Assembly: GCF_009931435.1 (NCBI RefSeq)
Contig: NZ_CP043414.1
Source of the DNA: Escherichia coli
GTDB lineage: Bacteria; Pseudomonadota; Gammaproteobacteria; Enterobacterales; Enterobacteriaceae
Strand: one strand, 5' to 3'
Length of the DNA stretch: 64,000 nt
Part shown: positions 1,608-64,000 of the stretch, in pieces
Position numbering within the stretch: the stretch's first letter is position 1
Layout of the letters: every line of letters begins with the position of its first letter
Notes under the pieces: generated by a model
Told to the model about the DNA's origin: nothing
What the model saw: the letters and a program-made list of their open reading frames with translations, nothing else
Database searches by the model: none
Position numbers and translations under genes: made by a program

Positions 1608-3323
1608 TTACTCCACTTCCTGCCAGTTTTTCCGCTTACTGGTTTTACCGATCCCCGGATTCATGCTGTTGGTCGGATCGTTCTCGCGATAGAACTTCTG
1701 CAACGTCTCCGGTGCTTTATACAAATGACCGACGTTATGCTCGGCAGGGTATTGCGCGCCGCGCTGCTGTAGCAGTTCCAGCATCTGTTCTTTCAACGCA
1801 TGCACATCCACGCCTTTTTTAACGATGTAATCCTGATGGAAGACATAGCACATAAAATGGCCGTAATAGAGCTTGTGCACCAACTGACTGTCGATCTCCG
1901 GCGGTAAATGCTCATACCATTCGGTGTCGTTACGCCGCAGAGCGATATCCAGCGCCAGAATGTCTTCGACTTCATCGGAATGCACGGCCTGATAACGAAT
2001 TGCTGCGCCCGCAGCGGCGAAACGGTGTAAAAACGCTTTGCTGCCTTCCTCCGGCGTACAGACAAAGAAATCGCCCTCGGCCTGTTTGAAATAATCCACC
2101 AGCCACGATTTAGCTTCGCCGACGCCATCGCCCGCCATTTTTAACAGCAGATGATGTTCATATTTATCGCGCCAGCTTTTCATACGCGGTGGTAAATGGC
2201 TGGGGAACAGGTGACCGAATTTTTGCATCGCACGGTCGGTAAAATGCGGACGGAAGAATTTCACTTTCTCCAGCATCGCATCGGTGCGTCCCTTGAGATT
2301 AAAGAAGAACGGCATCTTGTCGGTGCCTAACTTATCAATCATCAGGAAGGTGTCTTTGCCGTATTTTTCCGCGATATCGTAGATATCCCGGTGCATATAT
2401 TCCCCGGCAACCGGCAGGTTCTCGAAATTAGCCAGGATATGGCGGCGGATTTCGGTCAGTACTTCCGGCTGGTTGGTGCCGATATAAAACACCTGCTGAT
2501 TTTTTTCTGCTTCGAAGGTATCAAGACGTACCGCAAAGACGGCCAGTTTACCGGCGCAACCGGAGGATTCAAACAGGCGATCCGGGTCGGCGTTATAACG
2601 TGCGGGTGTGTCGGCTTCAATATCACGAACGCGGTGGACATAGTCATAATCGTGGGCGTGACGACCATCGTGGCGCACATCGTCATCTTTGATGCGATCG
2701 TCATCCAGCTTGCTAAGGATCTGCTCCGGCGTTTCGCCGAGATCAATCCCCAGATGGTTCACCAGCGTCAGTTTGCCGTCTTCATTTATACGCGCGAATA
2801 ACGACATTTCGGTATACGCCGGGCCACGCTGCACCAGCGAGCCGCCGGAGTTGTTACAAATACCGCCGATGACCGATGCGCCTATACACGATGAGCCAAT
2901 CACCGAGTGCGGTTCGCGTCCCAGCGGTTTGAGGGCTTTTTCCAGCGAATAAAGCGTGGTGCCCGGATAGGCCAGCACCTGTTCGCCCTTGCCAAGAACG
3001 TGCAGCTTGTCGAGACGCAGGGTGCTGATGATCACGATATCGCGATCATAGTCGTTACCGTTTGGCGTCGAGCCTTCGGTCAGACCTGTATTGGCAGCCT
3101 GCATCAGAATAATTTTGTCGGCGGTGACGCAGGCTTTCAGCACCCGCCACAATTCCAGTAGTGAGCCAGGGAAAACGACAGCCAGCGCGTCGCCCTGACC
3201 AGAACGGAAGCCCTTGCGATAGCGGGCCGTTTTTGCGGGATCGGTGAGCAGGTGTGAATGACCGACCAGACGGGCAAGTTCATTCAAAAAGGCTTTATTA
3301 TCAGTTGTTGTCATGGAAGACAT
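1608..3323 (-). CDS. dld: FAD-dependent D-lactate dehydrogenase
   Basis: 582-aa ORF; internal start MSSMTTTDNKAFLNEL gives the 571-aa protein as I recall Dld. Confidence 0.9.
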   Translation of the reverse strand: MSSMTTTDNKAFLNELARLVGHSHLLTDPAKTARYRKGFRSGQGDALAVVFPGSLLELWRVLKACVTADKIILMQAANTGLTEGSTPNGNDYDRDIVIISTLRLDKLHVLGKGEQVLAYPGTTLYSLEKALKPLGREPHSVIGSSCIGASVIGGICNNSGGSLVQRGPAYTEMSLFARINEDGKLTLVNHLGIDLGETPEQILSKLDDDRIKDDDVRHDGRHAHDYDYVHRVRDIEADTPARYNADPDRLFESSGCAGKLAVFAVRLDTFEAEKNQQVFYIGTNQPEVLTEIRRHILANFENLPVAGEYMHRDIYDIAEKYGKDTFLMIDKLGTDKMPFFFNLKGRTDAMLEKVKFFRPHFTDRAMQKFGHLFPSHLPPRMKSWRDKYEHHLLLKMAGDGVGEAKSWLVDYFKQAEGDFFVCTPEEGSKAFLHRFAAAGAAIRYQAVHSDEVEDILALDIALRRNDTEWYEHLPPEIDSQLVHKLYYGHFMCYVFHQDYIVKKGVDVHALKEQMLELLQQRGAQYPAEHNVGHLYKAPETLQKFYRENDPTNSMNPGIGKTSKRKNWQEVE

Positions 3324-3518: not shown

Positions 3519-5816
3519 ATGAAATGGCTATGTTCAGTAGGTATCGCGGTGAGTCTGGCCCTGCAACCAGCACTGGCGGATGATTTATTCGGTAACCATC
3601 CATTAACGCCTGAAGCGCGTGATGCGTTCGTCACCGAACTGCTCAAGAAAATGACAGTTGATGAGAAAATTGGTCAGCTGCGCTTAATCAGCGTCGGCCC
3701 GGATAACCCGAAAGAGGCGATCCGCGAGATGATCAAAGACGGGCAGGTTGGAGCGATTTTCAACACCGTAACCCGTCAGGATATCCGCGCCATGCAGGAT
3801 CAGGTGATGGAACTGAGCCGCCTGAAAATTCCTCTTTTCTTTGCTTATGACGTGCTGCACGGTCAACGCACGGTGTTCCCGATTAGCCTCGGTCTGGCCT
3901 CTTCTTTTAATCTTGATGCGGTGAAAACGGTCGGGCGTGTCTCTGCTTATGAAGCCGCAGATGATGGCCTGAACATGACCTGGGCACCGATGGTCGATGT
4001 CTCGCGCGATCCGCGCTGGGGACGTGCTTCCGAAGGTTTTGGGGAAGATACGTATCTCACTTCGATTATGGGTAAGACTATGGTGGAAGCGATGCAGGGT
4101 AAAAGCCCGGCAGATCGCTACTCGGTGATGACCAGCGTCAAACACTTTGCCGCTTACGGCGCGGTAGAAGGCGGTAAAGAGTACAACACCGTCGATATGA
4201 GTCCGCAGCGCCTGTTTAACGACTATATGCCGCCGTACAAAGCGGGGCTGGATGCAGGCAGCGGTGCGGTAATGGTGGCGCTGAACTCGCTGAATGGCAC
4301 GCCAGCAACTTCCGACTCCTGGCTGCTGAAAGATGTGCTGCGCGATCAGTGGGGCTTTAAAGGCATTACCGTTTCCGATCATGGCGCAATCAAAGAGCTG
4401 ATTAAACATGGCACGGCGGCAGACCCGGAAGATGCGGTGCGCGTGGCGCTGAAATCCGGCATCAACATGAGTATGAGCGATGAGTATTACTCGAAGTATC
4501 TGCCTGGGTTGATCAAATCCGGCAAAGTGACGATGGAAGAGCTGGACGACGCTGCCCGCCACGTGCTGAACGTCAAATATGATATGGGGCTGTTCAACGA
4601 CCCATACAGCCACCTTGGACCGAAAGAGTCTGACCCGGTGGATACTAATGCTGAAAGCCGCCTGCACCGCAAAGAAGCGCGTGAAGTGGCACGCGAAAGC
4701 CTGGTGTTGCTGAAAAACCGTCTCGAAACGTTACCGCTGAAAAAATCAGCCACCATTGCGGTGGTTGGGCCACTGGCGGACAGCAAACGTGACGTGATGG
4801 GCAGCTGGTCCGCAGCCGGTGTTGCCGATCAATCCGTGACCGTACTGACCGGGATTAAAAATGCCGTCGGTGAAAACGGTAAAGTGCTGTACGCCAAAGG
4901 GGCGAACGTTACCAGTGACAAAGGCATTATCGATTTCCTGAATCAGTATGAAGAGGCGGTCAAAGTCGATCCGCGTTCGCCCCAAGAGATGATTGATGAA
5001 GCGGTGCAAACCGCGAAACAATCTGATGTGGTGGTGGCTGTGGTCGGTGAAGCTCAGGGGATGGCGCACGAGGCTTCCAGCCGTACCGATATTACTATTC
5101 CGCAAAGCCAACGTGACTTGATTGCGGCGCTGAAAGCCACCGGTAAACCGCTGGTGCTGGTGCTGATGAACGGACGTCCACTGGCGCTGGTGAAAGAAGA
5201 TCAGCAGGCTGATGCGATTCTGGAAACCTGGTTTGCGGGGACTGAAGGCGGTAATGCGATTGCCGATGTGTTGTTTGGCGATTACAACCCGTCGGGCAAG
5301 CTGCCGATGTCCTTCCCGCGTTCTGTCGGGCAGATCCCGGTGTACTACAGCCATCTGAATACCGGTCGGCCGTATAATGCCGACAAGCCGAACAAATACA
5401 CTTCGCGTTATTTTGATGAAGCTAACGGGGCGCTGTATCCGTTCGGCTATGGTCTGAGCTATACCACCTTCACCGTCTCTGATGTGAAACTTTCTGCGCC
5501 GACCATGAAGCGTGACGGCAAAGTGACCGCCAGTGTGCAGGTGACGAACACCGGTAAGCGCGAAGGGGCGACGGTAGTGCAGATGTACTTGCAGGATGTG
5601 ACGGCTTCCATGAGTCGCCCGGTGAAGCAGCTGAAAGGCTTTGAGAAAATCACCCTGAAACCGGGCGAAACTCAGACCGTCAGCTTCCCGATTGATATCG
5701 AGGCGCTGAAGTTCTGGAATCAACAGATGAAATATGACGCCGAGCCTGGCAAGTTCAATGTCTTTATCGGCACTGATTCCGCACGCGTTAAGAAAGGCGA
5801 GTTTGAGTTGCTGTAA
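3519..5816 (+). CDS. bglX: Periplasmic beta-glucosidase, glycoside hydrolase family 3
   Basis: 789-aa ORF; start at MKWLCSVGIAVSLALQPALA (signal peptide) gives 765 aa; GH3 motifs. Confidence 0.9.
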   Translation: MKWLCSVGIAVSLALQPALADDLFGNHPLTPEARDAFVTELLKKMTVDEKIGQLRLISVGPDNPKEAIREMIKDGQVGAIFNTVTRQDIRAMQDQVMELSRLKIPLFFAYDVLHGQRTVFPISLGLASSFNLDAVKTVGRVSAYEAADDGLNMTWAPMVDVSRDPRWGRASEGFGEDTYLTSIMGKTMVEAMQGKSPADRYSVMTSVKHFAAYGAVEGGKEYNTVDMSPQRLFNDYMPPYKAGLDAGSGAVMVALNSLNGTPATSDSWLLKDVLRDQWGFKGITVSDHGAIKELIKHGTAADPEDAVRVALKSGINMSMSDEYYSKYLPGLIKSGKVTMEELDDAARHVLNVKYDMGLFNDPYSHLGPKESDPVDTNAESRLHRKEAREVARESLVLLKNRLETLPLKKSATIAVVGPLADSKRDVMGSWSAAGVADQSVTVLTGIKNAVGENGKVLYAKGANVTSDKGIIDFLNQYEEAVKVDPRSPQEMIDEAVQTAKQSDVVVAVVGEAQGMAHEASSRTDITIPQSQRDLIAALKATGKPLVLVLMNGRPLALVKEDQQADAILETWFAGTEGGNAIADVLFGDYNPSGKLPMSFPRSVGQIPVYYSHLNTGRPYNADKPNKYTSRYFDEANGALYPFGYGLSYTTFTVSDVKLSAPTMKRDGKVTASVQVTNTGKREGATVVQMYLQDVTASMSRPVKQLKGFEKITLKPGETQTVSFPIDIEALKFWNQQMKYDAEPGKFNVFIGTDSARVKKGEFELL

Positions 5817-14479: not shown

Positions 14480-16471
14480 TTACTCAAGCAAGGTTAATAA
14501 TTGTTCGCAAAGCAAAACGCAGTTATTCATTGCTTCTCCCCGTGCCTCGCCTTCTGTATTACGAAATTGTCCCAACACATGTGCCAGCCGATAAAAACCC
14601 ATCGCGGTGAGTTCATTGACCAGCAACTCTGACTGACTAATGGCACTCTGTTCCTGATAGCGCCAGCCATTATGGAGCAGTTGAATAAGCAACGCCTGAC
14701 AGCGCATCAGTAACTGATGAGTGGTAGACGGTACAGGCAGAACGCTGGCAGAAGGTAGCGGTGTCACAGGCGCAGTTTCTGCGTCCAGTGCCCAGGCGCG
14801 GGTTTGCGTCATCATTACTCGTGGTTCCAGTGTCAATTGCCCCTCAGCAAAATTGATAAACCCAGAAACCAGACTAACGGGATCTTCTGTTTGTTGTAAT
14901 AGAGCTGCCATGCGTTCAACAGCAAAGGGCGCACTGGCTGAAGCTGGCAGTGATAACGTCAGCACATTATCTTCACCTTCGCCACTGATTACCTGCGCAT
15001 CCAGTGTCTGCCGACTGCTGTCCCAACCGAGTGAAATGCACTCTTCTACTGGCAGAATAAATAAGTTATCGACCTGGTTAAGCGGTCGTATGGCGGCTGG
15101 CGGACGTTGGCGTAAATATTCCCGCAAAGCCACAATGCCCGGCTGGCGCAGTGGTGCGCTCAACATTTGCCAGGCATCAGGCGACAGCGGAACAACACTG
15201 CTTAAGCGGTTGCGGGTAGCTAATAGCAACTCGCCATCGGCACTGCGTTTTGCTGCTTGTGAAACAATTTGCCCACCCGCCAGCGCGCCAGCCTGAAAAC
15301 TAAACAGCCGCCGTTTTGCCGCTGGAGAGTTATCCTGTTCACTTCTCGGCCAACTGCGCGAAAGATGCAAAATACTGCCGGTGTCGGGATCGGTGAACCA
15401 GATGCGTAAACCATACCGCTCATTATCCTGCCAGCAACGCATACCTAGTGACACCAGCCGCAAATGATCAAGCTTTGCTTCGCCAGCAATGCCTGCGCCA
15501 ACGACCGTGCGCCACGGTATGGGCGGTACTTCACCGACACTGTCACGTCGCGCTATCTCTTGTGCACTGTTCAAGCGACTGGTTAACGCCGCAAGCTGGC
15601 ACAAGCATTTTCCGGCATGATAGTGGCTGGCGCGGGCGTGGAAGGCATCAACGCTTGCCCGTAGCTGTCGTAGTGATTCACTTACCCAACGCCAGTTGCA
15701 GCGTTCCGCCGCTTGCTGCGCGCGGCTGAAAGCAGCCTCGTAATGAATAAGCGGCTGGCTGATCCCGCCCAGCCATAATGCCTGACTTAATTGCTGAACA
15801 TAGTGACGACATGCTTTACCTTCGTCGCTGGAAAACGGATCGTCAGATGATGTGACGTGTTCACTGTGCATCTGCCAGATCAAATGAGTAAATTCTGCTT
15901 GTTGATTTTTGGCCTCGACGAAGGCCTGCACAGCCAGTACTACGTGTTCACACAGCGTTCCTTCAATACAGTCACAACGGGCGAAACGAATGCTGCTGCG
16001 GGAATAAAAACGCACATCGCTCATCGGTAAGCGGGCAGAGGGAATTTCGCCCGGGGTGCAGAACAACTCAATGGTGATGCCTTTAGCGACCAGCGCCTGC
16101 GCGCGTTTGCGCGTGGTATTGGGCAGGGTAGCCAGTTCTTCCTGCCAGATTGCCGGATCCCACTCTTCTTCTTTTTCCGTAGGCTGGGCGGTGGCACAAA
16201 GTCGTTGATAACTTAACACCAGCATCACGCGATGACGGCACATGCCGCTGGCCCCGCAGCTGCATTGAGCCTCTTTCAGTGCCTGACTGTTCGCCAGCCG
16301 GGTACGGACACCGTCACTGAACGTGGCGATTAAAGCGCCGTTCTCATGGCAGATTTCCGGGACATTGCCATTTTCCAGTTCCTTAAGGCTGCGCTTCACA
16401 AAACCAGCATTGCTTAACGCCGTCAGGGCCTGCGGTGTCAGTTCTAATAATTCCGGACGTAGTGAATTCAT
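14480..16471 (-). CDS. yehQ: SWIM zinc-finger protein YehQ (start uncertain)
   Basis: Two CxCxnCxH motifs (CSCGASGMCRH and CDCIEGTLCEH); first ATG (MNSLRPELLEL) lies directly after the yehP stop. Confidence 0.75.
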   Translation of the reverse strand: MNSLRPELLELTPQALTALSNAGFVKRSLKELENGNVPEICHENGALIATFSDGVRTRLANSQALKEAQCSCGASGMCRHRVMLVLSYQRLCATAQPTEKEEEWDPAIWQEELATLPNTTRKRAQALVAKGITIELFCTPGEIPSARLPMSDVRFYSRSSIRFARCDCIEGTLCEHVVLAVQAFVEAKNQQAEFTHLIWQMHSEHVTSSDDPFSSDEGKACRHYVQQLSQALWLGGISQPLIHYEAAFSRAQQAAERCNWRWVSESLRQLRASVDAFHARASHYHAGKCLCQLAALTSRLNSAQEIARRDSVGEVPPIPWRTVVGAGIAGEAKLDHLRLVSLGMRCWQDNERYGLRIWFTDPDTGSILHLSRSWPRSEQDNSPAAKRRLFSFQAGALAGGQIVSQAAKRSADGELLLATRNRLSSVVPLSPDAWQMLSAPLRQPGIVALREYLRQRPPAAIRPLNQVDNLFILPVEECISLGWDSSRQTLDAQVISGEGEDNVLTLSLPASASAPFAVERMAALLQQTEDPVSLVSGFINFAEGQLTLEPRVMMTQTRAWALDAETAPVTPLPSASVLPVPSTTHQLLMRCQALLIQLLHNGWRYQEQSAISQSELLVNELTAMGFYRLAHVLGQFRNTEGEARGEAMNNCVLLCEQLLTLLE

Positions 16472-17604
16472 GACTGAAGATTCTCCGCAAGCCAGGTCGC
16501 CAGTTCGCCTGGCGTCATCGCGGCTATTTGTGCGCCGACATTTACCAGCGCCTGGGCTGTATCGCGGTCGTAGCAAGGTGTTGCGGTGCTATCGAGCGCT
16601 GCCAGTCCCAGCACTTTGATGCCGCTCTGGACACACTTTTTCACCTGATGCGTCAGCAATGATGATGAACCCCCTTCATAGAAATCGCTCACGAGGATAA
16701 TGACGCTTTTCGCTGGTTGTTCAATAAGTTGCCGACCATACTCCACGGCACTGGCGATATTGGTCCCGCCGCCCAGTTGTACTTTCATTAATAACTCTAC
16801 CGGATCAGCAACGTCTGCCGTGAGATCAACGACGCTGGTGTCAAAAGCGACCAGATGGGTGCGGATACCGGGTAACTGCCATAAACAGGCCGCCATCACC
16901 GCTGAGTGGATCACCGAATCGACCATTGATCCGCTTTGATCAACCAGTAACACCAGCTGCCATTGTTCGCTATGGCGTTTAATTCGGCTGTTAAAGCGGG
17001 GGGATTCGATATACAACTTGCCGTGTTGCGGGTGCCAGTGTTGCAGGTTGGCGCGCAGAGTACTTTTGAAATCGAAATTACGCGCCAGTGGAATAAATGA
17101 GCGGCGACGGCGATCGCGTACACCTGAAAAAGCCTGACGAACTTCCTTTGCCAGTCGCGCCATAATTTCTTCAACAACCTGGCGCACTATCCGGCGGGCG
17201 GCAGCCAGCACTTCGGGATTCATCAGATGTTTGGTGTGCAAAACGGCGCGTAGCAGGCTTTCAGAGGGCTGCATACGTTCCAGCACGTCGAGATTCGTCA
17301 CCACATCTTCAATGCCGTAGCGCAGTACGGCATCGCTTTCCAGCCGCTCAATCACCTGTTGCGGGAACAGCGTGTGAATACTGTTGATCCAATCAGGGGT
17401 GGTGAGATTTGAGCCACCTAATCCACCGGAGCGTTCACCACGCTGGAGCCGTTCAGGGTCGCGCCCGTACAGCCACTCCAGCGCGTGGTCTATCCGCCGG
17501 GCGTTGTCATCCAGCCCACAAAGCGTCGTTTCTGCCGCTTCGCCAAGAATTAATCGCCAGCGTTGTAGCTCACGAGTGGTCAGAAGATCGTTCAGTTCAG
17601 ACAT
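16468..17604 (-). CDS. yehP: von Willebrand factor A domain protein YehP
   Basis: Internal start MSELNDLLTT gives 378 aa; MIDAS-like DxSxS motif (LVDQSGSM); overlaps the yehM stop. Confidence 0.8.
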   Translation of the reverse strand: MSELNDLLTTRELQRWRLILGEAAETTLCGLDDNARRIDHALEWLYGRDPERLQRGERSGGLGGSNLTTPDWINSIHTLFPQQVIERLESDAVLRYGIEDVVTNLDVLERMQPSESLLRAVLHTKHLMNPEVLAAARRIVRQVVEEIMARLAKEVRQAFSGVRDRRRRSFIPLARNFDFKSTLRANLQHWHPQHGKLYIESPRFNSRIKRHSEQWQLVLLVDQSGSMVDSVIHSAVMAACLWQLPGIRTHLVAFDTSVVDLTADVADPVELLMKVQLGGGTNIASAVEYGRQLIEQPAKSVIILVSDFYEGGSSSLLTHQVKKCVQSGIKVLGLAALDSTATPCYDRDTAQALVNVGAQIAAMTPGELATWLAENLQS

Positions 17605-19876
17605 GGAAAACTCCCCAGTGTTGCAGTGATGCCAGTGCCTGCTGTTCGAGTTGTTGATGATGTGCAATGGCTTGCGGTGGGCAATGCAACGGCATTTGCA
17701 GCGCCGAAACGGGAAGCTGAGCGAGCTGGTAATGCTCAAGCACCTGATGCGCCAGCGTCCCGCGTTCTCGTGGCGGTAGCCAGGCCATCGCCGCGCGCAA
17801 ATCGGGCAGGGCGTTAATAAAATCGGCGTCACTCAGTTGATTCAAATGGCTGCTGAAACCGGCGATAAATGCAGGCTGACTGGCCAGTTGATGGCGGGCT
17901 AATGCCAGCAAACCGTGCAGCGCCTCGCCAGATTGTGCCGGGGATAATTGTGCCAGCATCGTCAGCGCCGCTTCGGCACTGGCGTTGGGATGTTCCAGAC
18001 GCATCAGCGCGCCAAGGGCCGCACCGCGATCCAGCGCTGGGGCATGAATCGCCTGACTGCGACGTTCCAGTAAGGCTACCGCCGCAGAAAGCGAAACGCC
18101 GGGTAAATTAACGCCGCTATTTAGATCGCGCAGGATATGGCAAAGCGCCTGCCAGCTATGCAGGTGAGCGTGAAACTCCTTCTCATCCGGCCTGCCGTTG
18201 GATTCACATAGCCACAGTGTGCGATCGATAGCCGCGTATAACGTCGTCTGTAATATCTGCGCGCCTTGCATACCGCTGATTTCATCGAGCTGCCACAAGG
18301 CGTAAAGCACTTCCAGCGCCTGGCCCATTTCGGCAAACTGATTTTCCTGGGCGATTAATAATGTGAGTTGTTCCAGTAATTGCTGACTGAAGGACGCCAG
18401 ACCCGCTAACGCTGCCTGGCTAAGACATGTGGTGATGCCGCTGATTCCACCCGCGTCCAGCATATCGGCTTCTAATTTATTGCGTGCGGCCTCCTGGAGT
18501 GTGGCACCAAAGCAGGCGGCTTCAATCAATGCCGCATGTTGGCTAAGTGGCTGGGTTAATGTCCAGCGTTCTTCACCGTTGCCCGCCAGCGTCAGTGTAC
18601 TTCCGTGCTGGCGCACAATGCCGGGAATCTCCAGTATTGCCAACCGATGTAGCACCTGACTTTGCGCCAGTCCATCGGGGGTAAAGCGATTTAAGGTAAG
18701 CTCCGCCGGAAGAGAGATTCCGGTACGTTCCAGTTCGCAGGTGACATCTTTTGGCAGAGGTGGCTGTGGCGTCGAGGGGGCAAGTTTACCGAATCCGTCA
18801 CCTGCTAATGTGTCTATCAACGTTACCAGTATCGGATCGGTATCGGGATGAATAACGCCGCGATAGCTCCACGGCAACGGCGCGTTCAGGGCTTCTTTGA
18901 TCAGCGAGCCTGCTATAGCATCCAGCCAGTCAGTGCGTAACGGTAGTGTATGACCGCGCAACTGTGCCAGTGCCATCGCATGCAGATGAGCGGCAGCCAT
19001 ATCCGCTGTTGAAGCAGGCAAGTGGTGCTGGCGCAAACGGGTAAGAACCGTTTTTAGTAGTTGTTCACCTGCCTGCTGCAAGCCCCACCGCCAGCACCAG
19101 TTTTGCCAGACCGGGGCAGGCATTCCTGAAAGGTATCCTGCCAGCACATCAAGGCGCTTTTCACTGTATGGCGTGAGATAGCAACCTGTAACGGCATCAT
19201 CCTGTGAGAGCAATTCTGGCTTGTTAATTTCTTGCGGGCATTCGCGCCACATTTTTGCAAGTGCCGGAGCGTGCCAGCCTCCGCAGACGACTAATACGTC
19301 GCCATTATTTTGCTGCATCGCCCATGCAATCCAGCGGGCCATAAAGGCTTCGCGCTGACGATTGAGTGCATCGCCGGAGGCGTCGCCCCGCAGTTGTGCA
19401 AAATAGTGCGCCAGTGCAGAGGGTAATATAGTTTGCTGGCTTTCATCTTCGAACAGGTGATCCCACAGAGTGTCGCTGTTATCCATACGAGTGGCACGCA
19501 GCAACAAAGCCTGGCTTTCCTCTTGCGTACCGGGTGACTCGTCCTCTTCTTCACTCTGCGCCCAGCAAGGCAAATCGATGAAGTAAGTTTGTGCCTGAAT
19601 ACGACGTGCGGCTTGTAGCGCCTGCCACTCCGGCGAAAATTCAGCAAATGGCGTCCAGGCACCACGCCCGGGGGCCGCACCGTCCTGATACTGGCAATAA
19701 CTGTAAATAGCTACCGGAAGCTGGTGGGCTAACAACAGTTCGTCTACCCGGTCATTAAAATCAGCCGGGCCTTCAATCAACACGTATCGTGGCCGCTGGC
19801 TTTCGATTAACGATTTCACCAGCCGGGCGCAGGCCGGACTATGATGCCGGATGCCGACAATTAACGGCTCGCTCAT
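17597..19876 (-). CDS. yehM: Uncharacterised protein YehM
   Basis: Internal start MSEPLIVGIRHH gives 759 aa; overlaps the yehL 3' end; no recognisable catalytic motif. Confidence 0.75.
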   Translation of the reverse strand: MSEPLIVGIRHHSPACARLVKSLIESQRPRYVLIEGPADFNDRVDELLLAHQLPVAIYSYCQYQDGAAPGRGAWTPFAEFSPEWQALQAARRIQAQTYFIDLPCWAQSEEEDESPGTQEESQALLLRATRMDNSDTLWDHLFEDESQQTILPSALAHYFAQLRGDASGDALNRQREAFMARWIAWAMQQNNGDVLVVCGGWHAPALAKMWRECPQEINKPELLSQDDAVTGCYLTPYSEKRLDVLAGYLSGMPAPVWQNWCWRWGLQQAGEQLLKTVLTRLRQHHLPASTADMAAAHLHAMALAQLRGHTLPLRTDWLDAIAGSLIKEALNAPLPWSYRGVIHPDTDPILVTLIDTLAGDGFGKLAPSTPQPPLPKDVTCELERTGISLPAELTLNRFTPDGLAQSQVLHRLAILEIPGIVRQHGSTLTLAGNGEERWTLTQPLSQHAALIEAACFGATLQEAARNKLEADMLDAGGISGITTCLSQAALAGLASFSQQLLEQLTLLIAQENQFAEMGQALEVLYALWQLDEISGMQGAQILQTTLYAAIDRTLWLCESNGRPDEKEFHAHLHSWQALCHILRDLNSGVNLPGVSLSAAVALLERRSQAIHAPALDRGAALGALMRLEHPNASAEAALTMLAQLSPAQSGEALHGLLALARHQLASQPAFIAGFSSHLNQLSDADFINALPDLRAAMAWLPPRERGTLAHQVLEHYQLAQLPVSALQMPLHCPPQAIAHHQQLEQQALASLQHWGVFHV

Positions 19877-19886
19877 GCATCTTTCC

Positions 19887-20975
19887 TCACGGCAGGCGGT
19901 GGCGAGCTTGATAATAAGCCTGCCAGTGAGCTTCTTTATGTGTAGCGACACGTTGTTCGAAGTAACGGCGCAGACGTGCGCGATCTTCTTCGTTATCTTT
20001 GACGATGGTTCCGGCAATACAGTCCACCAGGTCGGCTGGCTCCCCCGCGCGATTCGCTAAAAACCAGGCGCGGACGCCCACGGCGTGGGCCACGTTAACG
20101 GCTTCAGCGGTGGACATAATCGCTGTAAAGGTATCCATTGAGGTTTTCTTTTCGCCGTTGGCACGCAGATCGCGGAAGGTGCGGACCAGTAACTCCAGTA
20201 CCGCGTCAGGCACTTTATGCGGAATGCCACTATGGGCCAATAAACGCGCCGAAGCACTGGCGACCAGTTCCAGTTCCTGGGCGAAATCCATAATCGGAAA
20301 GACAGTTTCAAAATCGAATCGACGTTTTAGTGCCGCGCTCATTTCATTAACGCCGCGATCGCGGGTATTGGCAGTGGCAATAATATTAAAGCCTTCTCGC
20401 GCATAGAGCTGACTGGCTTCACCAGTGAGTTCCGGCACCGTCATAACCCTGTCAGAAAGCATACCTAACAGACAGTCTTGTACTTCCAGTGGTGTACGCG
20501 TTATCTCTTCAAAACGGACAATTTTGCCGTCGCGCATTCCCTGGTAGAGCGGGGCAGGGACCAGCGCTTCCGTTGACGGACCATGATTAATAAGCAGGGC
20601 GTAGTTCCAGCCGTACTTGATTTGATCTTCGGTGGTAGATGCGCCGCCCTGGATAGTTAACCCAGCATCGCCGCTAATAGCGGTTGCCAGTAATTCAGAC
20701 AGGAGCGATTTTGCGGTGCCTGGTTCCCCCACCAACATCAAACCGCGCCCGGTAGCAAGAGTGACTAACATGCGTTCGACAGCGGAGGGACTAATCACGA
20801 CTTTACGGCTGATATTTTGCGCGCTATCGCCAAGAATAAAAGAACGGGCCGCAGGCAAACTTAACTGCCAACCGGGCGGGCAAGGTGCGTGATCATTTTG
20901 TTTTAATTTTGCCAGTTCATCGGCGTATAACACAGCGGCAGGTGGACGCTGCAGATGATTATTCTGCGGTGACAT
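19887..20975 (-). CDS. yehL: MoxR-like AAA+ ATPase YehL
   Basis: Walker A LVGEPGTAKS; start at MSPQNNHLQRPP has an AGGGA Shine-Dalgarno-like sequence upstream and gives 362 aa (the ORF-track start at 21041 has none). Confidence 0.8.
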   Translation of the reverse strand: MSPQNNHLQRPPAAVLYADELAKLKQNDHAPCPPGWQLSLPAARSFILGDSAQNISRKVVISPSAVERMLVTLATGRGLMLVGEPGTAKSLLSELLATAISGDAGLTIQGGASTTEDQIKYGWNYALLINHGPSTEALVPAPLYQGMRDGKIVRFEEITRTPLEVQDCLLGMLSDRVMTVPELTGEASQLYAREGFNIIATANTRDRGVNEMSAALKRRFDFETVFPIMDFAQELELVASASARLLAHSGIPHKVPDAVLELLVRTFRDLRANGEKKTSMDTFTAIMSTAEAVNVAHAVGVRAWFLANRAGEPADLVDCIAGTIVKDNEEDRARLRRYFEQRVATHKEAHWQAYYQARHRLP

Positions 20976-21094
20976 ATATTCATCCCTGAAATGTATTAAT
21001 GAAATAAAAGATATTTTACGCGCAATAAATGTTTGGCGCATTAGTTGTTTGAGCGGAAAATATCTGGAAAGCAGATCACAGTAAATAAAAAAAC

Positions 21095-21235
21095 CTGCTG
21101 GTGAGGCAGGTTCTTTTATTTACTACTTTCAGGCCTAACACCACGGCCTGTGCAACATCGTGTTCCAACGAACGAATTATAACCACCGCTGGACCCCGTT
21201 GCAATTAAGATAATGAGATTTATAATCCTGACAGT
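21095..21235 (-). ncRNA. orzO: Candidate OrzO antitoxin sRNA, copy 1 (boundaries approximate)
   Basis: On the minus strand the hairpin aacctgcctcaccagcaggtt is followed by a 7-T run, i.e. a terminator for a transcript running divergently from the zorO leader. Confidence 0.35.
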
Positions 21236-21407
21236 TGGGAGGTTGCGCCGGATCGAACCAATTTCAAGTCCTGGCTACCGGACGGGTGGTGCTGCAGGTG
21301 GTGCCCTGATCCGGAGTGCAACATCGTGGTCCAACATACGTAAACCAGTATCGACAGGCAGTGTAAGGGTAAGGTGCTGGTGTTGCGCTCCTTAATAAGG
21401 AGAGCGG

Positions 21408-59435: not shown

Positions 59436-60335
59436 TTAACGCAATAATGGACAATCTGGTGGTAATCGACAACGCAACGCCGCCGGAAGTATTTCAATAT
59501 GAAAGTTTTGTCCGCTCAACGGTTCGCCATCAAGATTAAAAGTGATTTCGTGTGGGGCTTGTATATCAAACCACGACGAAGCGCCTTCGATAATATTCGG
59601 GTTATCTTCGTCAGATTTTAAGGTTGATACGAGAGCCGGAAGAATTTCATCGCCGGTAAAAATGCGCAGTTGCAGCAAGCCATCGTTAATTAACGCGTTC
59701 GGACACAATTGCTGACCGCCACCGGCCTGACGCCCGTTACCAATACCAATGACCAGGGCGTCACCTTGCCAGTGAAAGTTTTCACCGCGGATTTCACAAC
59801 GGTCCGGTTGCAGAGTATCCATGCGCATTAAGCCATGAATGATGTAAGAGACGCCACCCAGCGCGGCTTTTAATTTTTCCGGCGTTTCTGTGGTAATACG
59901 CGTCCCAAATCCGCCTGTCGCCATATTAATAAAACAGGTTTGTTTGTTGACCTGCGCCATATCTATCGCAATGGCGTTACCGGCAATTGCCAGTTTCAGC
60001 GCCTTATCCAGTGCCTCAGGAATCCCTACACTGGTGGCAAAATCATTGGCGGTTCCTAATGGCAAAATTCCCAGCGCGGGTATGTCATCCCCCTCACACT
60101 GAATCAACGCCGTAGAAACTTCATTAATGGTGCCATCGCCACCACCGGCAATCACCGTTGCGACGCCCAACTTCCGGGCCTCCTCTACATATCGTGCGGC
60201 ATCGCCTTTCTCCCAGGTGACCCGCACATGGATCGTCATTCCTTCCTCACGCAACAGCATAATTGCTTCGCGCAAGGGTAGATTGTCAGTACTTTTGCCA
60301 TTAAGAATCAGTAAGCTGGCGGGAAATTCTGCCAT
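59436..60335 (-). CDS. yegS: Lipid kinase YegS (diacylglycerol-kinase catalytic domain family)
   Basis: 299-aa ORF; GGDGT motif ([12 protein letters not shown]). Confidence 0.9.
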
Positions 60336-60741
60336 GATCGTATGTGCCTTTATGATTGGTCTGTAGATAGTGTAGAGCAGAAAACAAAAGGTGGAGTCAG
60401 AACAGGATGAAAGTCGGAGGATAAAAAGTCAGTTCAAGTATGGAGGATTCAGTGGTTACCACCAGGAGCTTGCAATGGGGGACAGCGAATACTAACGGCT
60501 GCCACCGATAAATTTCAAAAAAGAGCATATACCTAATATTCAACTAAACAGTGGCATCTTCAATATAATATATTAAAGCCCCCATGGAGTTACCCTGAAG
60601 GGCCTCAATGTCCGTAATTCCTACTTATGTAGGAAATGTTGTACAGAACATTTATTATAATCCTATTCAATTATAATAATCATGCCATTATTATATTTAA
60701 ACACTAGAGAGTGTCGTTGGTATTTAATGGGGGAAGGTGAG

Positions 60742-61059
60742 ATGAAAAAGATAGCTGCTATATCATTAATTAGTATTTTTATTGTGTCTGGTTGTGCTGT
60801 GCATAATGATGAGACAAGTATCGGTAAATTTGGTCTTGCATATAAAAGTAATATTCAGCGTAAACTCGATAACCAATACTACACCGAAGCCGAAGCTTCT
60901 TTAGCCAGGGGCAGAATATCTGGTGCAGAAAATATAGTAAAAAATGATGCAGCCCATTTCTGTGTTACTCAGGGCAAAAAAATGCAGATAGTTGACCTGA
61001 AGACAGAAGGTGCAGGATTACATGGCGTCGCTCGTCTGACATTCAAATGTGGAGAGTGA
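60742..61059 (+). CDS. yegR: Small lipoprotein YegR
   Basis: Start MKKIAAISLISIFIVSGC (lipobox) gives 105 aa. Confidence 0.75.
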   Translation: MKKIAAISLISIFIVSGCAVHNDETSIGKFGLAYKSNIQRKLDNQYYTEAEASLARGRISGAENIVKNDAAHFCVTQGKKMQIVDLKTEGAGLHGVARLTFKCGE

Positions 61060-61217
61060 GAATATTTTTTGGTAAGCGTCAAACATGCGCGTTCTGGTTG
61101 TGCTTAGCCGGAACCTGTGCGAGCACGATGCCGTTACGTGAAAGGCATCGTGCTATGAAGGGAGATTCTATCGATGTGGTCAATGGAAGACGGTGACCAG
61201 GGATAGGGCTTATGCAT

Positions 61218-61244
61218 AAAAAATAAGCCCGTGTAAGGGAGATT
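61218..61244. other. Unoccupied P2-type phage attachment core (attB) within the cyaR 3' end
   Basis: aaaaaataagcccgtgtaagggagatt matches the P2 att core as I recall it; no prophage genes are present between yegR and yegQ. Confidence 0.6.
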
Positions 61245-61304
61245 ACACAGGCTAAGGAGGTGGTTCCTGGTACAGCTAGCATTTTATGGGTTATGTTTTT
61301 CAGC
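61218..61304 (-). ncRNA. cyaR: Hfq-dependent, CRP-activated sRNA CyaR (RyeE)
   Basis: Minus-strand sequence gctgaaaaacataacccataaaatgctagctgtaccaggaaccacctccttagcctgtgtaatctcccttacacgggcttatttttt matches CyaR as I recall it, including the terminator hairpin and U-tail. Confidence 0.85.
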
Positions 61305-61388
61305 GAAACGGATGATAACCTTAATAAATGCAGCTGTATGTGATCGGTTTCTAAGAATTTTCCATCCGGGAAAAATAATCGAAATTAA

Positions 61389-62750
61389 TCACTTACCGTG
61401 GGGGTTACGCGTGGTTTCCCCGGAGAAATGACGCATCAGCAGCGCGTAATTTAGCTCAAGATCCTGCGGCACCGGGAGCCACACAGTATAACCATCGCCT
61501 GGTGCTACCGGCATAGCTTCGCCTTTGGCGTTTTCCATGTGCTCAAGGGTAAAGTTAATGTTGCCTTGCGGCGTCATCAGCTCAAGGCTGTCGCCAACGG
61601 AGAATTTATTTTTCACCGCTACCGCCGCGAGGTCCCCCTTGCGCTCACCGGTAAACTCACCAACAAACTGCTGGCGGTCAGAAACCGAATAACCGTATTC
61701 GTAGTTCTGATAATCGTCGTGAGTATGACGACGCAGGAAACCTTCGGTATAGCCACGATGCGCCAGACCTTCCAGAGTTTCCAGCAGGCTGGTATCGAAC
61801 GGTTTGCCCGCAGCGGCATCATCGATAGCTTTACGATAAACCTGTGCGGTGCGTGCGCAATAGTAGAAAGATTTAGTACGGCCTTCGATCTTCAGCGAAT
61901 GCACGCCCATTTTGGTCAGGCGTTCTACATGGGCGATGGCGCGCAGATCTTTCGAGTTCATGATGTAAGTGCCGTGCTTATCTTCAAACGCGGTCATATA
62001 CTCGCCCGGACGCTGGGCCTCTTCGATCATAAACACTTTGTCGGTTGGTGCGCCGATACCCAGCGTCGGCTCAACATTTTGCACCGGAATCGGCTCGTAC
62101 TTGTGTACGATGTTGCCAACATCATCTTCTTTCCCTTCCTGGACGTTGTACTCCCAGCGGCAGGCGTTGGTGCAGGTGCCCTGGTTCGGGTCGCGCTTGT
62201 TGATATAGCCAGAGAGCAGGCAGCGACCGGAGTAGGCCATGCACAGCGCGCCGTGAACGAAGATCTCGATCTCCATATCCGGCACCTGATTGCGGATCTC
62301 TTCAATCTCTTCCAGCGACAGCTCGCGAGAGAGGATCACGCGGGTCAGGCCCATTTGCTGCCAGAATTTCACCGTCGCCCAGTTCACGGCGTTAGCCTGC
62401 ACCGAAAGGTGGATCGGCATTTCAGGGAAGTGCTCACGCACCAGCATAATCAGCCCTGGATCGGACATAATCAGCGCATCCGGCCCCATTTCCACCACCG
62501 GTTTCAGGTCACGGATAAAGGTTTTCAGCTTGGCGTTGTGCGGTGCAATGTTGACCACGACATAAAACTTTTTCCCCAGCGCGTGGGCTTCATTGATGCC
62601 GAGCTGAAGATTTTCGTGGTTGAATTCGTTGTTGCGCACACGCAGGGAATAACGCGGCTGGCCCGCATAAACAGCATCTGCGCCATAAGCGAAAGCGTAA
62701 CGCATATTTTTCAGCGTTCCCGCCGGGGAAAGGAGTTCCGGTTTAAACAT
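61389..62750 (-). CDS. yegQ: Peptidase U32-family protein
   Basis: 453-aa ORF. Confidence 0.85.
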   Translation of the reverse strand: MFKPELLSPAGTLKNMRYAFAYGADAVYAGQPRYSLRVRNNEFNHENLQLGINEAHALGKKFYVVVNIAPHNAKLKTFIRDLKPVVEMGPDALIMSDPGLIMLVREHFPEMPIHLSVQANAVNWATVKFWQQMGLTRVILSRELSLEEIEEIRNQVPDMEIEIFVHGALCMAYSGRCLLSGYINKRDPNQGTCTNACRWEYNVQEGKEDDVGNIVHKYEPIPVQNVEPTLGIGAPTDKVFMIEEAQRPGEYMTAFEDKHGTYIMNSKDLRAIAHVERLTKMGVHSLKIEGRTKSFYYCARTAQVYRKAIDDAAAGKPFDTSLLETLEGLAHRGYTEGFLRRHTHDDYQNYEYGYSVSDRQQFVGEFTGERKGDLAAVAVKNKFSVGDSLELMTPQGNINFTLEHMENAKGEAMPVAPGDGYTVWLPVPQDLELNYALLMRHFSGETTRNPHGK

Positions 62751-62852
62751 AATTCTCTCGTTCTGATGACAGGTCAGATCCGCTTCACCTGATGAAGCGG
62801 TTAGGGGAGTGCCCCCACTTTAAGGGCGGGCATTGTAGCGCAATCGGCGGGT

Positions 62853-63149
62853 TTAGCTCCAGTGTAAATGTCTGGTGGCGTCCTGGTTTTGGTTAAGGAT
62901 ACGAATGACGATAATTTCCCCTGGTGATTGCAGGAAATAAATGACGTGGCGTTCAAAAGAAAGAACAAAAATACCTTCGCCTAATTCAGGTCTGGGCGTA
63001 CCTATATTATTGTTACTCAGAATCTGGAGAACGTCTGAAAGATGTTCCACATATCTGTCGGCTTGTGGTTCGCCGAAATGGTGATAGCTGTAATACCAGA
63101 TGCCTTCTAAATCCTCATTGGCTTTTGGCATGAGTTTAATAATACGCAC
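62853..63149 (-). CDS. ParE/RelE-superfamily type II toxin
   Basis: 98-aa ORF with ParE-like motifs (EDLEGIWYY, IIVIRILNQNQD); begins 2 bp after the stop of the upstream antitoxin-like gene. Confidence 0.7.
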   Translation of the reverse strand: MRIIKLMPKANEDLEGIWYYSYHHFGEPQADRYVEHLSDVLQILSNNNIGTPRPELGEGIFVLSFERHVIYFLQSPGEIIVIRILNQNQDATRHLHWS

Positions 63150-63150
63150 A

Positions 63151-63402
63151 TTATTTCCTTATCCCTGCTTTCACCTTCCGTAAGAACGCGTCCTTTTCCC
63201 ACGGCTGAGCTTCACCACTACTCAACCCTTCTGCGAGCATGTCACGTAACGCTTGCAGGCGAGACTCTGCTTGCTTTTCTCGAAGTAATCGCAGTGACTC
63301 ACGGATCACTTCGCTTTGGGTGCGATAGTCGCCGGATTCAATTAAGGACTCGATAAATTCACGCAACTCATCGCCGAGATCAACCGTCATCGTTCTGGCC
63401 AT
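63151..63402 (-). CDS. ParD-like (ribbon-helix-helix) type II antitoxin
   Basis: Start MARTMTVDLGDELREFIESLIESGDYRTQSEVIRESLRLLREKQ matches the COG3609 ParD pattern and gives 83 aa; the ORF track extends 15 codons further upstream. Confidence 0.7.
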   Translation of the reverse strand: MARTMTVDLGDELREFIESLIESGDYRTQSEVIRESLRLLREKQAESRLQALRDMLAEGLSSGEAQPWEKDAFLRKVKAGIRK

Positions 63403-63655
63403 TTTACGCCCGCCTGTAAGTAAAAATCTTACATCAGTGTATGTCATAAACCGGATAGCGTCACGAAAGTATTAGAAGATATTTTGGCACATGAACATGT
63501 TCAGGAGGATAAGTATGGGATGGTAAACAAAGAAAGCACAACGAGTGCTCGTCAGTGCCCACTATTTTAATGGCGGCGGTTACTCTTAATTATTAATAAC
63601 TAAGCGTTATTTGGATATAAAGCCGGACGCCAACAACCCACGCCCGGCATCGTAA

Positions 63656-63988
63656 TTACGTATTGTCTTTCACCGTCTGGCTTGTGCCATTGGCTTTAAC
63701 GGAGGCAATTCCGGTTTCACGAGATTGCGCGGTGGCGTACATCTGGCTGGAGCCGATAATTTGATGATTAGCGGCTTTCAGATTGAAATAGAATTTGCCG
63801 TTACTTGCCGTTTTTTTCTCATAGCGTTCTTCTTGCGGGCTGTTGCTACGCACCGACGCGATGCCCTTTTCCGCAGAGGCTTTTGAGGTATACAGCTCGC
63901 TGGTGAGGATAGTCTCACCATTGCCCGCTTTTAGCACAAACCGGAACTGATTATCACTGCTCTTACTGAGTTCAAACCAACCAGCCAT
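63656..63988 (-). CDS. yegP: DUF1508 (UPF0339) tandem-repeat protein YegP
   Basis: 110-aa ORF with two internal repeats (FRFVLKAGNGETILTSELYTSKASAEKGIASVR and FYFNLKAANHQIIGSSQMYATAQSRETGIASVK). Confidence 0.8.
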   Translation of the reverse strand: MAGWFELSKSSDNQFRFVLKAGNGETILTSELYTSKASAEKGIASVRSNSPQEERYEKKTASNGKFYFNLKAANHQIIGSSQMYATAQSRETGIASVKANGTSQTVKDNT

Positions 63989-64000
63989 AATGACTCCTTG

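Follow-up and report, generated by a model that had tools for sequence, protein, structure and literature searches.

Between yegQ and yegP, the Escherichia coli chromosome analysed here (contig NZ_CP043414.1) carries two small open reading frames, and the question they raise is whether these form a true toxin-antitoxin operon and, if so, of what kind, how it came to lie there and what it may mean for its host. The stretch under study, hereafter the window, comprises 64,000 nucleotides, and its relevant features are collected in Table 1. A preliminary description had taken the frames for a ParD/ParE-like type II pair in antitoxin-first order, probably a strain-specific accessory insertion into a conserved intergenic region. 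Both frames were found at the coordinates given there, where their strand (minus) was not named, and the coordinates of the flanking genes bear out the position between yegQ and yegP; the gap between the two genes, however, is not of 2 bp, since the parE start follows the parD stop after only 1 nt (T at 63150). So tight a spacing suggests, as judged from the nucleotide sequence, that the two genes are translationally coupled. The layout is that of type II toxin-antitoxin systems, with two small co-oriented genes, antitoxin first, and abutting frames, and every relative fetched is arranged in this way.

Table 1. Features of the parDE locus and its surroundings (positions in the window unless stated otherwise).
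Feature	Position	Strand	Remarks
yegQ	61389-62750	-	one flank of parDE
yegQ promoter-like site	62832-62860 (K-12 analysed locus: 2582-2610)	-	from the scanner
Whole cassette	62842-63619	.	~780 bp; right edge ambiguous by ~3 nt (shared TTTA)
parE	62853-63149	-	98-aa toxin; GTG start 63149, stop 62855-62853
parD	63151-63402	-	83-aa antitoxin; ATG 63402, stop TAA 63153-63151; N-terminus MARTMTVDLGDEL...
ParD regions			N-terminal ribbon-helix-helix and C-terminal toxin-binding part; PF03693/TIGR02606
AAGGA Shine-Dalgarno for parE	63156-63160	-	within the last parD codons; read from the sequence
Inverted repeat TGTAAG-ATTTTTA-CTTACA (TGTAAG-N7-CTTACA)	63415-63433	-	overlaps the predicted transcription start
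Inferred parDE promoter	63436-63464	-	-35-like GTGACG 63464-63459, 17-nt spacer, -10-like TACACT 63441-63436
Terminator-like hairpin with T-rich tail	63534-63550	-	upstream of the parD promoter, inside the cassette; kept in E. whittamii
yegP	63656-63988	-	other flank of parDE

The 83-aa product of parD matches the Pfam family ParD_antitoxin (PF03693, E 4.7e-19, residues 1-78 on model positions 1-76 of 81) and the NCBIfam model TIGR02606 (CC2985 type) with 88.4 bits, the curated cut-off being 46.2. Its N-terminal ribbon-helix-helix (RHH) is picked up by Pfam as RHH_1 (0.0034, residues 6-42) and by the NikR RHH models of the NCBIfam search (1.4e-4), and residues 2-53 align at 8e-18 with the 2-54 RHH construct of PrpA (7YCV). 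In the PDB, ParD matches PrpA best (1.9e-27) and after it the ParD partners in those complexes whose ParE chains the toxin finds. For the toxin, Pfam reports ParE_toxin (PF05016, E 3.9e-13, residues 4-90 on model positions 1-88 of 89). The two domain assignments proposed in the preliminary description thus hold in Pfam, and the antitoxin-first ParD(RHH)/ParE reading as a whole is borne out by the Pfam, NCBIfam, PDB and fold matches. Against the Pseudocitrobacter copy, parD is 92% identical in amino acids and 52% at third codon positions, and parE 79% and 48%; such high amino-acid and low third-position identity points to purifying selection on both genes. These family matches and the purifying selection rule out a chance pair of reading frames. 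By its sequence, the pair is a type II toxin-antitoxin operon fixed in the chromosome, an ordinary two-gene ParD/ParE module.

The start of the antitoxin differs from that in RefSeq, where it is called as a 98-aa protein from the ATG at 63447, that is, 15 codons longer. We aligned the 170 nt 5' of parD from ten loci, namely those of E. coli, E. whittamii, Pseudocitrobacter, a Salmonella plasmid, a Yersinia prophage, three Buttiauxella species, Cedecea and one further enterobacterium. The coding start ATGGCnnGnAC (MAR...) is kept in all ten, and the 15 extra codons of the RefSeq model show no conservation among them and lie inside a promoter-like region, the RefSeq ATG itself falling in the promoter spacer. 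The gene caller used on the Pseudocitrobacter contigs likewise gives an 83-aa antitoxin, and PrpA has 86 aa (PMC7848731). For these reasons the 83-aa start, which was also that of the preliminary description, is preferred, and the RefSeq start is probably 15 codons too long.

Since PF05016 also takes in RelE-type toxins and RNases and does not by itself separate ParE from RelE, the ParE branch was tested separately through PDB sequence and fold comparisons, on which the subfamily call is based because the NCBIfam profile search of the toxin matched no family. By sequence, the PDB matches of the toxin are ParE-type chains only, the best being PrpT (7YCS, 3.4e-11) and the others M. tuberculosis ParE1 (8C24), Caulobacter ParE1 (3KXE), V. 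cholerae ParE2 (7R5A) and Mesorhizobium ParE2 (6X0A). An AlphaFold2 model built with 37 homologues (pLDDT 91.9) has the layout beta1, two-helix hairpin and three-stranded antiparallel sheet (E3-6, H8-25, H27-46, E60-65, E68-74, E78-86). In Foldseek searches of the PDB the best 23 matches of this model are all ParE-type (TM 0.65-0.90), with PrpT at TM 0.87-0.90 and an rmsd of 1.2 A. It is extremely improbable, in our opinion, that the toxin is a RelE-like, ribosome-dependent mRNA endonuclease and no gyrase poison. PF05016 and the RefSeq name "RelE/ParE family" do span both kinds, and no NCBIfam model resolves this protein, but its PDB sequence matches are confined to ParE-type toxins, the RelE, YoeB and YafQ structures fit the model clearly worse (TM 0.5-0.66 versus 0.83-0.90 for ParE-type toxins), a BLASTP comparison with E. 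coli RelE (an approximate sequence) gave no alignment, and the partner antitoxin is of the ParD type. On the strength of sequence matches and of the predicted fold, we place the toxin in the ParE branch of the RelE/ParE superfamily.

Among named systems, PrpT/PrpA of Pseudoalteromonas rubra (7YCS; PMC13048266, PMC9731233), encoded on plasmid pMBL6842 (PDB 7YCS/7YCU), matches both proteins best in sequence and in fold and shares with them a PF03693 RHH antitoxin and a ParE-type toxin (83-86 aa and 98 aa) in antitoxin-first order. The copy described here differs in being chromosomal, with no plasmid origin with iterons adjoining it; the prpTA genes overlap by 8, whereas parDE are separated by 1 nt, and the toxin is only about 31-36% identical to PrpT. 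PrpA recognises the motif TTTG(T/A)AAT in its own promoter and in the origin iterons (PMC7848731, PMC9731233). This motif does not occur in the cassette (62842-63619), and the operator proposed for parDE thus has another sequence than the one used by its closest studied relative; elsewhere in the window it occurs at 9 sites, with 7.2 expected by chance. Given the chromosomal locus and the absence of the motif, parDE is a sequence relative of PrpTA and not a member of its plasmid copy-number control system.

The Caulobacter ParDE1 (3KXE), M. tuberculosis ParDE1 (8C24) and V. cholerae ParDE2 (7R5A) systems, chromosomal like the present one and with their complexes solved, have the same ParD(PF03693)/ParE architecture and fold (TM 0.83-0.88), with toxin identities to CcParE1, MtParE1 and VcParE2 of 26-31% (30% for VcParE2 in the structural alignment). 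The tryptophan found in the helix-hairpin loop of these three toxins is Phe25 in our protein, as it is in PrpT. ParDE of RK2/RP4 and ParDE-I of IncI/IncF plasmids share the toxin superfamily and the addiction logic (PMC6614396), but their antitoxins belong to other families (PF09386 for RK2 ParD and COG3905 for ParD-I, as against PF03693 here). ParE-I and CcParE1 share no more than about 15% identity (PMC6614396), and on account of this very low identity and the different antitoxin family the ParDE-I system was ruled out as being the same one. PaaR2-PaaA2-ParE2 of E. coli O157:H7 (5CW7/5CZF) also has a chromosomal ParE-type toxin of the same fold (TM ~0.76); it differs in its ~17% identity, in being a three-component prophage system and in its unrelated antitoxin without RHH.

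The ten-locus alignment also bears on how the operon may be controlled. Upstream of parD the DNA is mostly unalignable, save for the inverted repeat, a TAnACT box and the coding start. The core of the repeat (GTAAGA-N5-CTTAC) is invariant in 10 of the 10 loci, and the repeat occurs only once within the 64-kb window; the invariance of the core in such divergent loci makes it likely that this element is the ParD operator. The TAnACT box stands at a fixed distance ahead of the repeat in most relatives. The putative parDE promoter agrees with the consensus at 8 of 12 positions, which is below the threshold of the scanner, and the promoter scan did not report it. The terminator-like hairpin further upstream may shield parDE from transcripts that run on from yegP. 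A perfect 12-bp palindrome (TGAACATGTTCA, 63492-63503), also kept in E. whittamii, lies upstream of the parD promoter. An Rfam scan of 60300-64000 returned only CyaR, outside the cassette; this sRNA gene (CyaR or RyeE; 61221-61306, minus strand, RF00112, 100.7 bits) is expected downstream of yegQ and is unrelated to parDE.

We then come to how the pair reached this position. The cassette takes the place of ~21 bp (GCTTTACCAGAGCCCCCCACA) of the ancestral yegP-yegQ spacer. A search for repeats at its flanks found no convincing direct repeats, only short pairs at chance level, and no mobility gene was seen within it. In K-12 BW25113 the spacer is empty and measures 146 bp, in agreement with the preliminary description, according to which K-12 lacks the pair. 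The empty-site sequence GGCGCTTTACC...CCCCACAGCGCTACAAT is common to K-12, E. albertii, Enterobacter and Kluyvera, and this conservation across genera argues that the empty site is ancestral and the cassette an insertion, as had been proposed, into a conserved intergenic region. The alternative that the K-12 site is a deletion scar was ruled out, the same ~21-bp spacer being present in E. albertii, Enterobacter and Kluyvera.

Among 5426 complete E. coli genomes, the whole 905-bp interval with parDE is present in 1843, about a third, and the K-12-type empty site in 3182. The pair is thus accessory, as first thought, and far from ubiquitous in E. coli, but it is not strain-specific, since 1843 genomes and other species carry it. 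A third state was found in 298 of the 5426 genomes, including CFT073 and the type strain ATCC 11775, in which a 5.3-kb island lies within a gutted cassette; strain A0 34/86 is of this type as well. In CFT073 (analysed locus 15941-21270) this island encodes PcfJ-, DUF1266- and DUF4034-domain proteins plus a hypothetical protein, and it is bracketed by the two cassette ends, corresponding to window 62842-62871 (including the last 19 nt of parE) and 63560-63617. From the presence of both ends around it we deduce that the island replaced the interior of a pre-existing parDE cassette.

The insertion is old. E. whittamii has it at the same site, with a ParE that is 94% identical, and in Pseudocitrobacter (contigs named by exact protein matches of BaeR, YegQ and YegS) parDE is flanked by baeR and yegQ; yegP is absent there, and the parE-yegQ junction is the same. 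The third-codon-position identities of parD (52%) and parE (48%) between E. coli and Pseudocitrobacter are close to those of the neighbouring genes (baeR 55%, yegQ 65%, yegS 43%), and this similar divergence is better explained by a long stay beside them, or by a joint transfer with flanking DNA, than by a recent mobile acquisition. Two independent decay states of the same cassette are also found: E. coli GCA_013360015.1 (analysed locus 4001-4355) has an IS1 in the 3' end of parE, and in an Escherichia sp. (analysed locus 2834-3176) a deletion has removed all of parE but its 3' half, which is now joined to the right end of the cassette.

This repeated decay (IS1 in parE, the 3' parE stump and the 298 gutted cassettes), together with truncated variants among the protein clusters, would be in keeping with a decaying or attenuated remnant in this strain, with little or no toxin activity, that was kept because ParD or read-through into yegQ is useful or neutral. 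The toxin of the window, moreover, differs from the common E. coli allele WP_001220181 by a rare change, P64S (codon 64, window 62958-62960); the exact allele (WP_161399862.1) was found on 3 contigs of a 15-billion-protein collection and the common one on at least 1000 contigs, and Pro64 is kept in all nine close relatives aligned. However, M. tuberculosis ParE1 has a Ser at the aligned position, on which account P64S may be harmless, both reading frames are intact, parE is under purifying selection across genera and the toxin model folds with high confidence. We consider such a remnant very unlikely.

Relatives of the pair on mobile elements raise a different possibility. Those with 60-66% toxin identity are found on a Salmonella Rep3/TraX plasmid and in a Yersinia mollaretii prophage, where the relative adjoins holin and lysozyme genes. 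Plasmid records with a relative number 1206, mostly conjugative plasmids of Escherichia, Klebsiella and Enterobacter; true plasmid copies reach a toxin identity of at most ~65%, and two "plasmid" matches at 98% identity proved to be records of 1.4 Mb and 4.8 Mb, that is, chromosomes filed as plasmids. The PADLOC anti-phage models contain no family for ParD or ParE, PHROGs gave only generic antitoxin or unknown-function families, and a phage collection yielded one partial relative. In all enterobacterial relatives ParD is far better conserved than ParE (67-92% versus 41-78% identity), with 91% for ParD and 66% for ParE in the Salmonella plasmid, 77% and 60% in the Yersinia prophage and, in a further example, 79% and 43%. 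Residues 1-60 of ParD hardly vary, and its C-terminal toxin-binding part is the most variable. A higher conservation of the antitoxin than of the toxin is the reverse of what is usually expected for toxin-antitoxin pairs.

It could be imagined from these data that ParD is the main benefit of the locus, as an anti-addiction or cross-talk module against related plasmid or prophage parDE: the chromosomal ParD would neutralise the foreign ParE and repress the foreign promoters, so that the host sheds the elements without being killed. The much stronger conservation of ParD than of ParE with respect to the mobile relatives, the identity of the operator core in all those aligned and the abundance of relatives in plasmids, mostly conjugative, of Escherichia and Klebsiella are in line with this. 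On the other hand, it is precisely the toxin-binding part of ParD that varies most, and the toxins have diverged to 60-66% (with true plasmid relatives at or below ~65%), a divergence that in other toxin-antitoxin families usually insulates the pairs. On balance we find it unlikely that the main benefit of the locus comes from ParD, and we turn to an explanation that assigns a role to both proteins.

We believe it quite probable that parDE is an old, selfish insertion whose toxin is repressed and neutralised by ParD and poisons gyrase. Of its parts, that ParE is a ParD-repressed and ParD-neutralised toxin is very likely, and that it acts as a gyrase poison is likely. According to this proposal, a weak sigma-70 promoter would transcribe parD and parE, with parE translation coupled to that of parD. 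ParD would dimerise through its N-terminal RHH, bind TGTAAG-N7-CTTACA over the transcription start and so repress the operon, and its C-terminal part would wrap ParE and neutralise it, probably in a ParE:ParD2:ParE heterotetramer like PrpT:PrpA2:PrpT. Whenever the breakdown of ParD outpaces its replacement, unbound ParE would most likely poison DNA gyrase, and gyrase poisoning would lead to DNA breaks, SOS induction and filamentation. The cassette would have entered the yegP-yegQ spacer long ago and been maintained as a presence/absence polymorphism; its behaviour would most likely be that of a selfish addiction element, whose parts are not easily lost one at a time.

For the regulatory and neutralising part, the model is the P. 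rubra system, in which PrpT is toxic both in P. rubra and in E. coli (with filamentation in the latter), PrpA binds and neutralises PrpT and represses the operon via its RHH domain (PMC7848731), and the complex is a PrpT:PrpA2:PrpT heterotetramer (PMC9731233). As to the target of PrpT, the word "gyrase" is absent from both of these papers (PMC7848731, PMC9731233). The gyrase part draws on the other ParE toxins with which the fold is shared. MtParE1 inhibits gyrase. VcParE2 acts on gyrase through its helix hairpin, with Trp25 as the key residue, and phenylalanine at that position lowers its toxicity without abolishing it (bioRxiv 10.1101/2025.07.24.666505). The same work describes PaParE1 as a non-toxic ParE, and the toxicity of a ParE is for this reason not to be assumed. 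The points that speak against the preferred explanation are Phe25, the rare P64S change, a promoter with only 8 of 12 consensus positions and the lack of an experimental paper on the locus: our literature search by gene neighbours and WP accessions found none that studies the yegP-yegQ parDE.

The insertion also touches the sequence in front of yegQ. In K-12, the scanner reports a promoter-like site (TTTACC-17-TACAAT; 9 of 12 matches, 0.1 expected by chance) directed toward yegQ/trhP, and the site has been preserved in E. albertii, Enterobacter and Kluyvera. The cassette retains the TACAAT box (62837-62832), and its -35 is replaced by the end of parE. No terminator-like site was found between parE and yegQ on the minus strand, and thus yegQ may receive read-through from the parDE promoter. 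In the 5' leader of yegQ there is a strong 9-bp hairpin (CCGCUUCAU...GUGAAGCGG, 62781-62801, minus strand) that is present with or without the cassette; it has no T-tract and is not an obvious terminator. This stretch has a different sequence in Enterobacter, Kluyvera and Pseudocitrobacter, where it may likewise fold into a stem of this kind. The two ideas may be joined into one, namely that in a third of E. coli a ParD-autoregulated promoter partly drives yegQ, the gene of the tRNA ho5U34 hydroxylase, and that ParD at the same time cross-neutralises or cross-represses the parDE of conjugative plasmids as an anti-addiction element; we put this forward as a rather doubtful conjecture.

The kind and the sequences of this pair are already known, catalogued and correctly named in RefSeq, where the genomes with the cassette bear the labels ParD family antitoxin (WP_001307279) and RelE/ParE family toxin (WP_001220181), and as a catalogued member of a well-understood toxin-antitoxin family it has a small discovery value. 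In a 2025 review, ParDE figures solely under the plasmid toxin-antitoxin loci of E. coli. What is added here is modest: the correction of the start codon, the conserved putative operator, the observation that the site exists in three states, and the suggestion that transcription of yegQ may be affected. The RefSeq start of the antitoxin is an annotation point, as it lies within the putative promoter. The yegP-yegQ spacer can serve as a population marker with at least three clean forms (empty, parDE, and island in a gutted parDE) and represents a small hotspot of recombination and replacement. Acquisition of ParDE-family genes has been linked to later quinolone-resistance mutations in a work that does not name the yegP-yegQ locus (PMC10575684). 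If ParE does poison gyrase, a third of E. coli strains would carry an endogenous gyrase toxin, which may bear on studies of quinolone tolerance and resistance.
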